A DNA stretch of 64,000 nucleotides from Candidatus Micrarchaeota archaeon (GTDB lineage: Archaea > B1Sed10-29 > JAJRYS01): positions 9,819 through 73,818 of the forward strand of contig CAZBZN010000001.1 of the NCBI GenBank assembly GCA_964496415.1, read 5' to 3'. Both the position numbers and the translations under genes were made by a program. The notes under the pieces were generated by a model. It was given only the letters and a program-made list of their open reading frames with translations, had not been told where the DNA came from and did no database searches. Of the stretch, positions 27,627 through 64,000 are shown piece after piece; the first letter of the stretch is position 1, and each line of letters starts with the position of its first letter.

Positions 27627-27661
27627 AATACCACTCAGTATTTTTAGTCGCTTGTTGCTTT

Positions 27662-27701
27662 CAGGCGATTGAGAACCACGTTAGTGGTTCGATGTCGCCT
27701 G
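27662..27701. repeat. HP element copy A (extended hairpin, L18e leader)
   Basis: caggcga-ttgagaaccacgttagtggttcgatg-tcgcctg. Outer 7-bp stem, internal loop, inner 7-bp stem gaaccac/gtggttc, GTTA loop. The outer stem differs from the other copies by compensatory changes. Confidence 0.6.
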
Positions 27702-27723
27702 CCCGCAAGCCGTATGCGGCTCT

Positions 27724-27762
27724 AGGGGATTGAGAACCACGTTAGTGGTTCGAACATCCCCT
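27724..27762. repeat. HP element copy B
   Basis: aggggattgagaaccacgttagtggttcgaacatcccct. Identical to the copies at 30277 and 63719. Confidence 0.6.
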
Positions 27763-27785
27763 GTCCGTAAACCGCACGCGGTTTA

Positions 27786-27923
27786 TGCAGGGGACGAGAT
27801 TTGAACTCGCGTGGGCACTAAGCCACAGGGCCCTCAACCCTGCCCGTTTTCCGGGAGGCCCCGCCTCTTATTACTTTTATTAACAGGAGGCAGGGGCCAC
27901 CGTCCAGGCTCCGGCACCCCTGC
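27786..27923 (-). tRNA. tRNA-Leu(GAG) with ~51-nt intron in the D-loop
   Basis: Minus strand. Acceptor GCAGGGG/CCCCTGC with A73. Anticodon arm CAGGG-TTGAGGG-CCCTG. 15-nt variable arm. T-arm GCGAG-TTCAAAT-CTCGT. It is collinear with the intron-less Leu(TAA) at 63802, apart from a GC-rich insertion between GCCTGGA and AAAACGG. Confidence 0.7.
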
Positions 27924-27990
27924 GTAGTTTTCATAGCATAGGGGTTGCGGGGAAGCTTTGCTTACCCAAGTACCCCTGCATAGTAATCCA

Positions 27991-30091: not shown

Positions 30092-30226
30092 TCATTCACC
30101 AGAATTTTTTATTTCCCTGTAGGTCACAGCCTTAGCGGCTCGCCAGGATTTGGTTTTTTATAACAAGTGTTATGATTTGTGAACTCTTTTGTTTATAAAC
30201 CTTATGGAAACAGCCGCACCACTGGG

Positions 30227-30275
30227 TTGAGGTCCGTAGGACCGAAGTCCTGTAAATGCAGGCTTTTTGAAGCCT
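30227..30275. repeat. E element (inverted copy), a hairpin-rich module in the S13 leader
   Basis: Reverse complement of 63638-63689, with a compensatory change gcaggctt/aagcctgc versus gcaagctt/aagcttgc. Confidence 0.5.
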
Positions 30276-30276
30276 T

Positions 30277-30315
30277 AGGGGATTGAGAACCACGTTAGTG
30301 GTTCGAACATCCCCT
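30277..30315. repeat. HP element copy C
   Basis: aggggattgagaaccacgttagtggttcgaacatcccct, 3' of the tRNA at 30340-30507. Confidence 0.6.
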
Positions 30316-30339
30316 GTCCGTAAACCGCACGCGGTTTAA

Positions 30340-30507
30340 CGCGGCGGGGGAGATTCGAACTCCCGTGCCCCGAAGGGCACCAGCTCTCCAGGCTCACCTC
30401 ACTTTGTTTAAGTTCACTTTTTAAGCAAAGTGAACTGGCGCAATACCATTGCACCCACAAGGGTGCAAACCAAATGGCTTGCCATTTGTGGTCTATGCGA
30501 CCGCCGC
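30340..30507 (-). tRNA. intron-containing pre-tRNA, most likely tRNA-Ser(GGA) with two introns (D-loop and anticodon stem)
   Basis: 168 nt, GC-rich. Acceptor GCGGCGG/CCGCCGC with G73. T-arm GGGAG-TTCGAAT-CTCCC. A class II variable arm TGCCC-TTCG-GGGCA. Joining ...GCGCCAG to CCTGGAGAGCTGG gives the stem CCAGC/GCTGG around the loop CTGGAGA. A D-stem GCA/TGC is separated by about 50 nt of hairpins. Confidence 0.45.
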
Positions 30508-30513
30508 ATGTTT

Positions 30514-48310: not shown

Positions 48311-49738
48311 TCATCCTTTAATACAGCCTATTGGTCTTACTCTTACTACTTTTTTAGCTAACCCGGCATTGTGCACTGCGTCAACTACTTCTGCTACGTC
48401 CTTGTAAGCTTCAGGAGCTTCTTCAGCTACTCCTGCGTAAGAATGTGCTTTAACTATGATTCCTTTTTCCCTTAGTCTGCGGATTATTTCCTCTCCTCTC
48501 CAGGAATGTTTTGCTTTTGTCCTGCTCATTCTTCTTCCACCGCCATGGCAAGCGCTTCCAAAAGTCTTACTGGTTCCGGTTTCTGTTCCAACTAATATGT
48601 AAGAGTATGTTCCCATGCTTCCTCCTATGAGTACTGGTTGTCCTACTTCCATGTAATCTTTTGGCAATTCTTTCCTGCCAGGACCAAAAGCTCTAGTAGC
48701 TCCTTTTCTATGAACATAAAGTTTTCTCTTCTCCCCGTCAACGTCATGCTCTTCTATCTTGCACGTGTTATGTGAGATATCATAAAGTGTTTCCACTTTT
48801 GCTTCTGGAAGTACTTTTTCAAAAGCAGTCCTTGCCAAGTGAGCTATTACTTGCCTGTTCGCTAACGCGCAGTTTATTCCAGCATTCATTGCACCCCAGT
48901 AATCCTGTCCTTCTTTTGATTTTATAGGAGCACATACGAGTTCCCTGTCCCTTATAGGAATCCCGTACTTTTTTGAAGCCTGCGCAAGGATTGGAAGGTA
49001 ATCCATTCCTATCTGATGCCCAAGAGCTCTTGAACCACAGTGAAATGATATTAAGACATCTCCTTTTTCCACTTTGAACACTTTTGCTGTTTTTTCATCA
49101 AACACTTCATCAACTACTTGAATTTCTAAGTAGTGGTTTCCTGAACCAAGAGTCCCTACTTGCTTGTACTGCCTTTTTTTTGCTTTGTGTGATACTTTTG
49201 AAGCATCAGCTCCGTCAACTCTGCCGAATTCTTCTATGAATTCAAGGTCTCTTTTTGTCCCATACCCTTGTTCAACAGCCCAAACAGCTCCTCCTTCTAG
49301 CACTTCATCAATTCCCTGTTCAGTTAGCTTTATTTCACCAGTGCTTCCAAGACCAGCAGGTACTGTTCTAAACAATTCGTTTACTACCTCCTCTATTTTT
49401 TCCTTTACTTGTTCTTCTTTCAGGCCAGTCCTCATTGTTCTTACTCCGCAAGAAATGTCAAACCCTACTCCTCCTACTGAAAGTATTCCTTCATCTTCGT
49501 CAAAAGCACCTACTCCTCCTATTGGGAAACCGTACCCCCAGTGAGCGTCAGGCATTGCCATTGCTGCTTTAACAATGCCTGGAAGGCTTGCCACGTTCAT
49601 GAGTTGTTCTCTTACTTTTTCATCCATTTCTGTAACTAGTTTCTCGTCAGCGTAAATCCTTGCAGGAACATTCATTTCACCAGTTTTTTCAATTTCCCAT
49701 TCATAGTCACTTATCTTTTTCAAAGCTTTAATATCCAC
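48311..49738 (-). CDS. rtcB: RNA-splicing ligase RtcB
   Basis: GSACHGGGRRMSR...and metal-binding His motifs. 475 aa. Confidence 0.9.
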   Translation of the reverse strand: MDIKALKKISDYEWEIEKTGEMNVPARIYADEKLVTEMDEKVREQLMNVASLPGIVKAAMAMPDAHWGYGFPIGGVGAFDEDEGILSVGGVGFDISCGVRTMRTGLKEEQVKEKIEEVVNELFRTVPAGLGSTGEIKLTEQGIDEVLEGGAVWAVEQGYGTKRDLEFIEEFGRVDGADASKVSHKAKKRQYKQVGTLGSGNHYLEIQVVDEVFDEKTAKVFKVEKGDVLISFHCGSRALGHQIGMDYLPILAQASKKYGIPIRDRELVCAPIKSKEGQDYWGAMNAGINCALANRQVIAHLARTAFEKVLPEAKVETLYDISHNTCKIEEHDVDGEKRKLYVHRKGATRAFGPGRKELPKDYMEVGQPVLIGGSMGTYSYILVGTETGTSKTFGSACHGGGRRMSRTKAKHSWRGEEIIRRLREKGIIVKAHSYAGVAEEAPEAYKDVAEVVDAVHNAGLAKKVVRVRPIGCIKG

Positions 49739-49757: not shown

Positions 49758-50174
49758 TCATACGTCAACAATGCATTGAGCAATCCAATGATCATTTGTT
49801 TTCTCAACTTTTACCTGTGAGTAAGTGGCTGCTTTTACTTCTGTCTTAGGATGGTGCTTTTCAGGGTTAAATTCTTCTCCGAGAGCGATAGCGGTTAGTT
49901 TGTTATCGTTTATGGTTACTTTAAAATCTTTGAAGACAATTCCTTCTAAGTCCATTTCTGTAAGCAGCTCGTTGAGGAATGATACGAGAAGACTTTCAAG
50001 GTCTGTTGACTCGCAGGTTATTTTTATTTCTTTGCAGGGGGTTATGTTTTCTAAGTCAAACATTATTGAAAACATTGCCTTGGCACATTCAGTAAAAGCT
50101 TCTTCAACTGTTTTTCCAATTCCTCTTACTCCTATGTCAGCAGTGTGTTCAAAAGTTTCGAACAACTTACTCAC
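49758..50174 (-). CDS. archease (RtcB activator)
   Basis: FEHTADIGVRGIGKT...EVKAATYS is the archease signature. Located upstream of rtcB. Confidence 0.85.
   Translation of the reverse strand: MSKLFETFEHTADIGVRGIGKTVEEAFTECAKAMFSIMFDLENITPCKEIKITCESTDLESLLVSFLNELLTEMDLEGIVFKDFKVTINDNKLTAIALGEEFNPEKHHPKTEVKAATYSQVKVEKTNDHWIAQCIVDV

Positions 50175-55937: not shown

Positions 55938-55941
<4 letters not shown>
55537..55941 (-). CDS. nusA: transcription termination/antitermination factor NusA (archaeal two-KH form)
   Basis: Two KH motifs, GFAIGKNGS and AIGKEGKK. 134 aa. Confidence 0.8.
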
Positions 55942-57358
<1,417 letters not shown>

Positions 57359-63446: not shown

Positions 63447-63511
63447 AAACAGCTAAAATAAGCTAAGTGAAGATTACGCATTTTCTCATATAAATACTTA
63501 ACTGTTTGAAG

Positions 63512-63639
63512 CGCCCCAGCCGGGATTTGAACCCGGGTCTCGGCCTCGACAGGGCCGAATCCTAGACCAATCTTCCACCTTTCTCAAGTTTTCTTTGGTG
63601 CAGCTTTCTTCTTAAGAAAGGTGCCTAGACTACCGGGGC
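63512..63639 (-). tRNA. tRNA-Asp(GTC) with ~55-nt AT-rich intron in the D-arm
   Basis: Minus strand. Acceptor GCCCCGG/CTGGGGC with G73. Anticodon arm CGGCC-CTGTCGA-GGCCG. T-arm CCGGG-TTCAAAT-CCCGG. The D region is interrupted by gcacctttcttaagaagaaagctgcaccaaagaaaacttgagaaaggtggaagattg, flanked by GTCTAG direct repeats. Confidence 0.65.
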
Positions 63640-63689
63640 AAGCTTCAAAAAGCTTGCATTTACAGGACTTCGGTCCTAACGGACCTCAA
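63638..63689. repeat. E element (direct copy), a hairpin-rich module at the tRNA-Asp 5' flank
   Basis: gcaagcttcaaaaagcttgc plus aggacttcggtcct, with an alternative pairing ggtcctaacggacc. It is the reverse complement of 30227-30275. Confidence 0.5.
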
Positions 63690-63718
63690 TCCAGTATCCG
63701 TGAGCCGTATGAGGCTCT

Positions 63719-63757
63719 AGGGGATTGAGAACCACGTTAGTGGTTCGAACATCCCCT
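63719..63757. repeat. HP element copy D
   Basis: aggggattgagaaccacgttagtggttcgaacatcccct, 3' of tRNA-Leu(TAA) after two GC hairpins. Confidence 0.6.
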
Positions 63758-63801
63758 GTCTGCCAGCTGCACGCAGCTGTCCGCAAGCCGCGCGCGGCTT
63801 A

Positions 63802-63886
63802 TGCAGGGGAAGGGATTTGAACCCTCGTAGGCACTAAGCCACAGGATCTTAAGTCCTGCCCGTTTTCCAGGCTCCGGCACCCCTGC
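63802..63886 (-). tRNA. tRNA-Leu(TAA), intron-less
   Basis: Minus strand: GCAGGGG-TG-CCGG-AGCCTGGAAAA-ACGG-G-CAGGA-CTTAAGA-TCCTG-TGGCTTAGTGCCTAC-GAGGG-TTCAAAT-CCCTT-CCCCTGC-A. Class II cloverleaf. Confidence 0.8.
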
Positions 63887-63946
63887 GTAGTTTTCATAGC
63901 ATAGGGGTGCCGGGAGAGCTATGCTTGCCCGAGCACCCCTTTGAAG

Positions 63947-64000
63947 TCCCGCCGGGGAGATTCGAACTCCCGATCCCCCGGTGACAGCACCCTTTTGCTG
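63947..64000 (-). tRNA. partial tRNA-like 3' portion truncated by window edge
   Basis: Minus strand ...GGGAG-TTCGAAT-CTCCC-CGGCGGG-A. The 5' part lies beyond 64000, so identity is unresolved. Confidence 0.35.

Follow-up and report, generated by a model that had tools for sequence, protein, structure and literature searches.

What is a hairpin of 39 nucleotides (nt) that recurs, in part without a single difference, beside the tRNA genes of an archaeon? The question is raised by a stretch of 64,000 nt (here called the window) from a Candidatus Micrarchaeota assembly (GCA_964496415.1, contig CAZBZN010000001.1, positions 9,819 to 73,818 of the forward strand), in which an initial annotation, made from the sequence alone, had described four copies of such an element, here named module A, next to tRNA genes and major operons. 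The answer favoured here, with belief and doubt about evenly balanced, is that within a lineage-specific family of palindromic repeats resembling the repetitive extragenic palindromic (REP) and BOX repeats of bacteria, confined to tRNA flanks and forming a co-transcribed structured spacer, A is the best-conserved module. The A family is young, and A is not a sequence-specific regulatory site of ribosomal protein operons. Among the roles listed by the initial annotation, that of a small structured repeat targeting tRNA flanks, similar to a MITE (miniature inverted-repeat transposable element), fits best.

The 20-mer core of A, GAGAACCACGTTAGTGGTTC, has exactly four matches on the + strand of the window (at 27671, 27732, 30285 and 63727), against none expected and none found over 100 dinucleotide-preserving shuffles. 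Exact matching of the full 39 nt gives three identical copies, and together these matches bear out all four copies first described:

27724-27762, + strand (the best-pairing strand): module A, full copy 1, with a 7-bp outer and a 7-bp inner stem
30277-30315, + strand: module A, full copy 2, 3' of a class II tRNA (probably tRNA-Ser)
63719-63757, + strand: module A, full copy 3, inside the spacer of 162 nt that separates tRNA-Leu(UAA) from tRNA-Asp
27662-27701, + strand: module A variant, with outer stem CAGGCGA(U)/(G)UCGCCUG, one compensatory G-C to C-G change and one U.G pair

Every copy in the window lies 3', in the minus-strand sense, of intron-containing tRNA genes, with one or two short GC hairpins in between. 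The expectation that each follows directly on a tRNA and a GC hairpin holds for the three full copies; it fails for the copy at 27662, which is the second A of its array and does not lie immediately beside the tRNA. The window has about 35% G+C, and its sole large GC-rich non-coding islands (27662-27983, 30108-30510 and 63496-64000) each contain tRNA genes. Modules were found in all three tRNA-containing gaps, whereas the roughly 11 remaining gaps of 97 nt or more had none (our own count from the list of open reading frames, ORFs; our Fisher estimate is about 0.003), in agreement with the proposed tie of A to tRNA flanks. The further tie to major ribosomal protein and RNA polymerase operons was not upheld. 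Blocks of A and its companion module B also stand behind tRNA-Ile, tRNA-Pro and tRNA-Val, beside unrelated genes, which makes the link to ribosomal protein operons incidental. A leader site or operator bound by a ribosomal protein was rejected on the same grounds, the block lying also between tRNA-Leu and tRNA-Asp.

A is the best-conserved member of a set of short GC-rich hairpin modules (A, B, C, D, E and F), each a hairpin complete in itself, of which B to F recur with A in varying number and order. The companion modules in the window are:

27768-27785, unstranded: module B hairpin TAAACCGCACGCGGTTTA, beginning 1 nt past the tRNA-Leu discriminator base and forming with A an invariant 62-nt block
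30321-30338, unstranded: module B hairpin, beside the class II tRNA
63764-63800, unstranded: two hairpins of B type (CAGCTGCACGCAGCTG, AAGCCGCGCGCGGCTT), flanked by A and tRNA-Leu(UAA)
27708-27721, unstranded: B' hairpin, between two A copies, with a homologue at 63702-63717
30220-30275, + strand: D-C unit, in which D has a GGGUU/AGUCC outer stem, a UGA/GA tandem G.A motif, a variable inner hairpin and a UGUAAAUGC tail
63640-63696, - strand: D-C unit in inverted orientation, abutting the tRNA-Asp 5' end directly
27940-27977, - strand: module E, a tRNA-Leu leader hairpin, with a second copy at 63903-63940

Module D follows the pattern CACTGGAYTGA-(variable hairpin)-GAAGTCCTGTAAATGC, C is a stem closing a CTTTTTG (CUUUUUG) loop, and F reads GGGGACACC-NNN-GGTTTCCCC and occurs in three tandem copies in the metagenome contig L002. 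Both tRNA-Leu genes are preceded, 16 nt upstream, by module E, which is built from partial copies of the tRNA-Leu 5' end: a direct one (AGGGGUGC.CGG) in its 5' arm and an inverted one (the reverse complement) in its 3' arm. By complementarity, a tRNA-Leu leader with E could fold on itself or anneal to the tRNA's acceptor and D-stem strand. The modules are joined into arrays of 60-290 nt, which start 1-3 nt past the discriminator base of a tRNA or stop at the +1 of the next. The usual composite (F or a short A, then D-C-A-B-(C), then the tRNA 3' end) is homologous behind tRNA-Ser in the window, tRNA-Ile in contig L005 and tRNA-Val in contigs L002 and L010. The 62-nt A-B block is identical at 27.7 kb (tRNA-Leu) and 30.3 kb (tRNA-Ser), and that of L005 (tRNA-Ile) matches the window block at 66 of 66 positions. 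Full A-B blocks keep the same orientation to the tRNA 3' end in 7/7 cases. Both orientations are seen among the modules at large, the D-C unit lying on the + strand at 30220 and on the - strand at 63640, with a short A in the tRNA sense in the tRNA-Gln leader.

The fold of A has outer and inner stems of 7 bp each, joined by a UGA/GAAC internal loop and capped by GUUA. The internal loop resolves into a U-A pair and two sheared G.A pairs, plus a bulged C that not every instance has. The case for a selected structure was originally built on covariation between the variant and the full copies. Once aligned, the variant departs from the full copies by one genuine double change (G-C to C-G), a U-A to U.G replacement, the loss of 1 nt and an additional outer pair. 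The double change is thus real, but it is a single one, and covariation on full-length A copies alone is not significant (70 of 500 shuffles match or exceed the observed value), so that the original argument is thin. Support comes instead from the wider A/D family. Short A variants retain AGGGGAUUGA...GAA(N)AUCCCCU around a replaced inner hairpin, D retains the outer stem and UGA/GA around an inner hairpin of GGUCC/GGACC, GGAGC/GCUCC, AGGCC/GGCCU, GC/GC or none, and the inner-hairpin swaps in both are fully compensated. Over distinct family instances the pairing cells comprise 142 Watson-Crick, 14 G.U and 1 A.C, and the own-sense fold is more stable than its reverse complement in 14 of 15 distinct module instances; these instances are related, and the independent wobble events are estimated at about 8 against 1. 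Since short A and D keep the outer stem and tandem G.A while the inner hairpin is swapped, the pairing is, as judged from these alignments, under selection, and the description of A as a selected base-paired hairpin stands on this broader footing.

The arrays are almost certainly transcribed in the tRNA sense, judging by spacers that lie inside conserved units without internal promoter. The 159-nt gap between tRNA-Leu and L18e in the window is made up of B-A-B'-A'' and a Shine-Dalgarno-like GAGTGG, with no room for a promoter; the Leu-L18e, Leu-Asp and Val-Glu spacers contain no AT-rich promoter-like stretch; and locus L106 is laid out as a promoter-tRNA-ORF-tRNA-E-tRNA-Leu-array-tRNA-Asp unit. 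Full copy 1 of A is probably transcribed as its reverse complement within the rpoD-tRNA-Leu-L18e unit. The minus-strand transcript had been assumed to be the structured one, but wobble and G.A pairs favour the opposite strand: the better-pairing strand is antisense to the tRNA transcript in all seven full A copies and in most D copies. Two leader modules, the D-C unit before tRNA-Asp and the short A before tRNA-Gln, are in the tRNA sense. With A mostly antisense and the leader modules in the tRNA sense, selection on pairing tracks the orientation of the element itself and not host transcription. T runs of at least 4 are nearly absent in the tRNA sense of the seven spacers (none in five of them) and common in the antisense, suggesting that orientation is filtered by avoidance of oligo-T termination signals, with read-through of the spacers; an intrinsic-terminator-like oligo-T after the tRNA was rejected on this distribution. 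A runs of at least 4 are frequent in the tRNA sense (spacers 27627-27785, 30092-30339 and 63640-63801, and those of L229 and L005).

An exact 20-mer scan of 185,579 GTDB species genomes (one genome per species) gave no match, and a metagenome scan found A in this context in three hydrothermal contigs, L002, L005 and L010. The L002 TrkH and the window RpoB' both occur on contigs from samples ERZ27248007 and SRR35108318, and contig L229 bridges the regions of L002 and L010; from this, L002 and L229 appear to be further parts of what is essentially the window's own genome. L010 is a 91%-identical relative, and L005, a possible relative, shares with the window the A context and the 66/66 block. 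A covariance model of A recovered seven full copies and four short variants in the window and L-contig material; it matched nothing in Aenigmatarchaeota-like loci, in two sister genera or in further archaea. Among L18e homologues the closest reach only 58-64% identity (source labels Candidatus Aenigmatarchaeota or Nanoarchaeota), which marks the host as a DPANN archaeon without close sequenced relatives. A locus search based on S11 returned only distant archaea (40-50% ribosomal protein identity), none with A; a scan of viral contigs found no A, with only chance matches to a 15-mer from D; and a BLAST search of plasmids and phages gave only 30-nt chance matches. From these searches, the arrays appear confined to one thermophilic DPANN species-level population.

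Even within this narrow range the arrays vary. The orthologous Val-Glu spacers of L002 and L010 (91%) differ by whole modules, B' being present only in L010 and the D inner hairpin only in L002. Relatives keep the rpoD-tRNA-Leu-L18e order with about 15-45 nt from tRNA to ATG and no hairpins, and in one sister genus (L234; TrkH 50% identical) the tRNA-Gln, tRNA-Val and tRNA-Glu genes have the same neighbourhood, are intronless and carry no arrays. In a second sister genus (L232; 55%; GCA_027076045.1, 6650-7540) three direct repeats of the tRNA-Glu 3' end, AAATCC(C/T)GCCAGAAGCA, follow downstream of the gene, and three repeats of the tRNA-Gln 5' end, ATAGCTCCGTAGTCTAGTG, stand upstream of theirs. 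Hairpin-bearing segments of about 50-125 nt set the repeats apart, which resemble att-like scars or small insertions at the ends of tRNAs. The module differences between L002 and L010, together with the L234 and L232 layouts, mark tRNA flanks as recombination or insertion hot spots in the clade.

If A belongs to a REP/BOX-like repeat family, the arrays would spread from one tRNA flank to another and be reshuffled as DNA, whether through recombination, through gene conversion or through a mobilising activity, which would account for the identical dispersed copies, the whole-module strain differences and the array-free sister lineages. The arrays would be transcribed within polycistronic tRNA/mRNA units, mostly as the reverse complement of the best-pairing strand, and in the transcript they would be inert or mildly useful structured spacers. 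Hairpins 1-3 nt past the discriminator base could keep flanking RNA from pairing with the tRNA and, after cleavage by tRNase Z or RNase P, could cap the new neighbouring RNA ends against exonucleases. Orientation would be constrained by the oligo-T tracts (T5 in C) present in one sense of the composite, at which archaeal RNA polymerase would stop.

Several points weigh against such a repeat family. Mobility is an indirect conclusion, as neither a mobilising enzyme nor terminal inverted repeats nor target-site duplications came to light. Pfam scans of 30 window ORFs revealed no transposase or integrase, and these ORFs are housekeeping genes (including RtcB, archease, ArcTGT and Cbf5). A MITE in the strict sense was rejected because no terminal inverted repeat or target-site duplication is consistent at the A-B or composite boundaries, where only TA at the hairpin feet recurs. 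The strict confinement to tRNA flanks argues for function, and the fixed start 1-3 nt past the discriminator base, with the constant orientation of the A-B blocks, equally fits a role in tRNA 3' processing or operon RNA metabolism. One C module has T5 in the tRNA sense just before tRNA-Asp, contrary to oligo-T avoidance. Finally, all data come from about 90 kb of one population, and the transcribed strand is deduced from sequence.

The alternative that survives best, possible though clearly the more tentative choice, takes the hairpins as a dedicated cis-acting RNA signal, which defines tRNase Z or RNase P substrates, blocks exonucleases or shields the spacer from factor-dependent termination; the modules would then be selected host elements rather than selfish repeats. 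The positional regularity speaks for it, each trailer array beginning 1-3 nt past N73, C abutting tRNA-Asp at +1, a B-like hairpin lying 2 nt before tRNA-Gln and all A-family copies standing in tRNA spacers within about 260 nt of a tRNA end, as do the constant A-B orientation and the location of the arrays within transcription units that avoid oligo-T in the tRNA sense. Yet the same genome has array-free tRNAs (the trailers of Asp, Gln and Glu, and two upstream tRNAs in L106), relatives with an identical operon layout do without arrays, and modules are gained and lost between strains. The wobble-preserving changes favour the strand antisense to the transcript, leaving A.C mismatches in the tRNA sense, and a purely structural role needs no 100% sequence identity between copies.

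The preference for the antisense strand is met directly by a different proposal, which is unlikely, that the modules act on their own strand, either as small RNAs convergent to the tRNA (transcribed, for example, from a bidirectional TATA box of the next gene) or as hairpin and oligo-T terminators stopping antisense transcription into tRNA genes. Structure is better in the module sense (tandem G.A; 14 G.U against 1 A.C cells), the only sense in which T5 in C and T3-T6 after B are found, and at 30.2 kb and in L005 the array starts about 26 nt from a TATA-like box that, in our reading, could fire bidirectionally. However, the purine-rich flanks of those TATA boxes favour the downstream genes, a plausible module-sense promoter is missing from the arrays at 27.6 kb and in the Val-Glu spacer, and two modules, the D-C unit that precedes tRNA-Asp and the short A that precedes tRNA-Gln, share the sense of the tRNA.

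An equally unlikely extension of the repeat-family reading makes the modules a hitherto undescribed type of structure-dependent mobile element that targets tRNA gene termini in DPANN archaea. Its intermediate would be single-stranded DNA or RNA of the module's own sense, and the mobilising agents might be enzymes of tRNA processing or splicing, or a recombinase acting in trans; this process would also seed the non-canonical introns and partial tRNA duplications of the clade. If true, such an element would be a directly observable system for the fragmentation of archaeal tRNA genes.

A decayed tRNA-derived origin, compatible with the repeat-family reading and rather improbable, would make A the remnant of a duplicated T-arm and acceptor (an att-like scar or a fold-back of a tRNA-Leu 3' end), later copied to other flanks. 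Without 18 of its nt, A reads AGGGGAU-UUCGAAC-AUCCCCU, a hairpin in the manner of a T-arm, and there is a weak alignment of A to the T-arm of tRNA-Ser (GTTCGAATCTCCCC; shuffle p of about 0.002-0.006, uncorrected for 16 tests), a similarity that is short and rests partly on the palindromic TTCGAA. AGGGG/CCCCU(G) is part of the tRNA-Leu acceptor stem, E is a direct and inverted copy of the tRNA-Leu 5' end, and the triple repeats of tRNA-Glu 3' and tRNA-Gln 5' ends in L232, with hairpin segments between them, point the same way. Against this, the Rfam tRNA model misses A and the composite on both strands even at E<=10. Moreover, since the same A adjoins five different tRNAs, it is not a copy of the local tRNA end.

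Comparison with known RNA classes likewise left A without a family. At the gathering score, Rfam 15 reported only tRNA in the window, and permissive scans of 27630-27990 and 30205-30345 gave chance-level matches of at most 15 bits over A, consistent with the statement that A is not in Rfam. The initial failure to fit A to a C/D box, H/ACA or tRNA model was repeated by anatomy and covariance models: A has neither a box C nor an ACA tail and no Rfam match to small nucleolar or other small RNAs at E<=10, and ARAGORN, like the Rfam model, misses A and the D-C-A-B composite, so that short T-arm-like similarity alone remains. The loops of A are directly opposite and not staggered, and a strict bulge-helix-bulge scan gave nothing convincing, although the same scan missed known introns. 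The proposed likeness to a K-turn or loop E holds for the tandem G.A, 5'-U-GA-G...C-GA-A-3', which flanks the inner helix on the + strand of all A and D instances; the minus (tRNA-sense) strand of A has no tandem G.A (loop GUUC/UCA). It fails in the rest of the motif. The 3-nt bulge 5' of the G.A pairs is absent, full A having a 1x2 loop with one U on the 5' strand and two bases (AC) on the 3' strand, and short A variants a 1-nt bulge or none. As for loop E/sarcin-ricin, AGUA/GAA is missing: the loop reads UUGA/GAAC, and its 5' strand lacks GUA. A K-turn or loop-E RNA bound by L7Ae or L30e, or an autoregulatory operator of ribosomal protein operons, is therefore highly improbable in spite of the Y-GA-R context of the tandem sheared G.A pairs beside a helix and of an L7Ae/L30e-family gene in the window, given the surplus bases on the wrong strand, the G.A motif only on the strand antisense to the operon mRNAs, and A copies beside non-ribosomal genes and between tRNAs.

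That gene is the ORF at 55938-56243, flanked by rpoA'' and NusA-S12-S7, which we take to be the position of L30e in established archaeal gene order. It had been reported as an L7Ae gene; a member of the L7Ae/L30e family is present, the position makes L30e most likely, and the proposed link to A is irrelevant in any case. A GC-rich segment at 30100-30170 (- strand), ccaaatcctggcgagccgctaaggctgtgacctacaggg, lies in the ~77-nt 5' untranslated region of S13-S4-S11-rpoD, downstream of a TTTATAAA box at 30193-30200, and is a possible ribosomal protein leader structure separate from the repeat modules. RtcB, the tRNA-splicing ligase (48311-49738), adjoins archease (49758-50174).

The tRNA genes that host the arrays in the window, with one that lacks trailer modules, are:

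27786-27923, - strand: tRNA-Leu(GAG), with a D-loop intron of ~48 nt; called only in part by ARAGORN and Rfam
30340-30507, - strand: class II tRNA, probably tRNA-Ser(GGA), with several introns; identified by eye and by conserved gene order
63802-63886, - strand: tRNA-Leu(UAA), from tRNA gene calls
63512-63639, - strand: tRNA-Asp(GUC), with a D-loop intron and without trailer modules

The class II tRNA at 30340-30507 was not detected by ARAGORN or Rfam. Non-canonical introns that are large or several to a gene (in the D-loop, the T-loop and other places) are also seen in L106 (478-628 and 973-1087) and L229 (8005-8128 and 8422-8521), and ARAGORN and the Rfam tRNA model miss or shorten such intron-laden genes. 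The T-loop intron of tRNA-Gln (L229 1932-1960 = L010 1932-1960) opens with an F-like hairpin, AGAGGGGCUGUGCCCCUUCUAACCCCC; its similarity to module F is not significant (best p of about 0.03).

Other metagenome matches were set aside. The match in L011, with an identical inner hairpin, was treated as chance, lying in GC-rich coding-looking sequence with no other module. Bacterial matches were treated as an unrelated family, with only the searched 23-nt hairpin in common. Seven of the loci (L001, L003, L004, L006, L007, L008 and L009; 41-62% GC) carry a bacterial-looking multi-hairpin element of about 130 nt, which contains the hairpin TGAGAACCAC-N4-GTGGTTCGA, is closed by GGAGGTGGA...TCCGCCTCC and lies 60-450 nt from tRNA genes in five of the seven (for example in a tRNA-Tyr/tRNA-Gly gap). 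A scan of locus L006 gave no Rfam match at E<=1, and the element is probably an unrelated, unannotated non-coding RNA.

If real, the A family shows that structured spacer running to hundreds of bases around operon-embedded tRNAs is tolerated, or put to use, even in a very compact DPANN genome. It would be a natural test case for the punctuation and stabilisation of archaeal polycistronic tRNA/mRNA transcripts, for the question why the tRNA loci of this clade are so dynamic (introns, partial duplications, hairpin arrays), and for whether archaea have REP-like mobilisation systems. The GC-rich islands and intron-laden tRNAs escape standard annotation, with a risk that they are mistaken for novel small RNA genes. 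Palindromic repeat families of the REP, BIME (bacterial interspersed mosaic element) and BOX types are well known in bacteria. To our knowledge, dispersed palindromic repeat families are little described in archaea and none is confined to tRNA termini, and a full-text literature search found no description of palindromic repeat elements at tRNA termini.

Among known systems, the Kink-turn shares with A two consecutive sheared G.A pairs flanking a Watson-Crick helix. In A the 3-nt bulge between the C stem and the G.A pairs is lacking and the surplus bases are on the other strand or missing, so that its helix is essentially continuous. The partial tRNA duplications that integrative elements leave at att sites share with A the location at tRNA 3' flanks, and A has a T-loop-like GGTTCGAA and CCCCTG; by contrast, an identical block stands behind five tRNAs, is no copy of the local end, and came with no integrase or cargo among the window ORFs. 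The non-canonical tRNA introns of Thermoproteales, for which transposition has been proposed, and fragmented tRNA genes offer a third comparison, as the host tRNAs here also carry large non-canonical introns. Modules and introns alike combine a conserved frame with a hypervariable hairpin insert, and the tRNA loci of the clade are dynamic; the modules differ in lying outside the mature tRNA and in having no bulge-helix-bulge found in or around A by the scan that also missed known introns.

The bacterial repeat families are the closest counterparts. The A family differs from REP/BIME in being archaeal (DPANN), in occupying tRNA flanks rather than general 3' untranslated regions, and in combining several unrelated hairpin families without a conserved GTAG head or inverted REPIN doublets; a counterpart of the REP-associated RAYT transposase (Y1/HUH) is absent from the 30 Pfam-scanned window ORFs, with ~90 kb of genome covered. 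REP/BIME and the A family are both GC-rich imperfect palindromes of about 35-40 nt with internal asymmetry, strictly extragenic and multi-copy, clustered into composite arrays and co-transcribed at gene ends, with pairing kept on one strand via G.T/G.U and with conservation within a genome that is lineage-specific. To BOX of Streptococcus pneumoniae (boxA-boxB-boxC) the A family has no sequence relation, and its single-hairpin modules of 16-40 nt are tRNA-terminus-specific and reside in an archaeal host. Both nevertheless build intergenic arrays from a few module types in fixed order and variable copy number, fold into a stable structure, are transcribed with their neighbours, and are present or absent from strain to strain.

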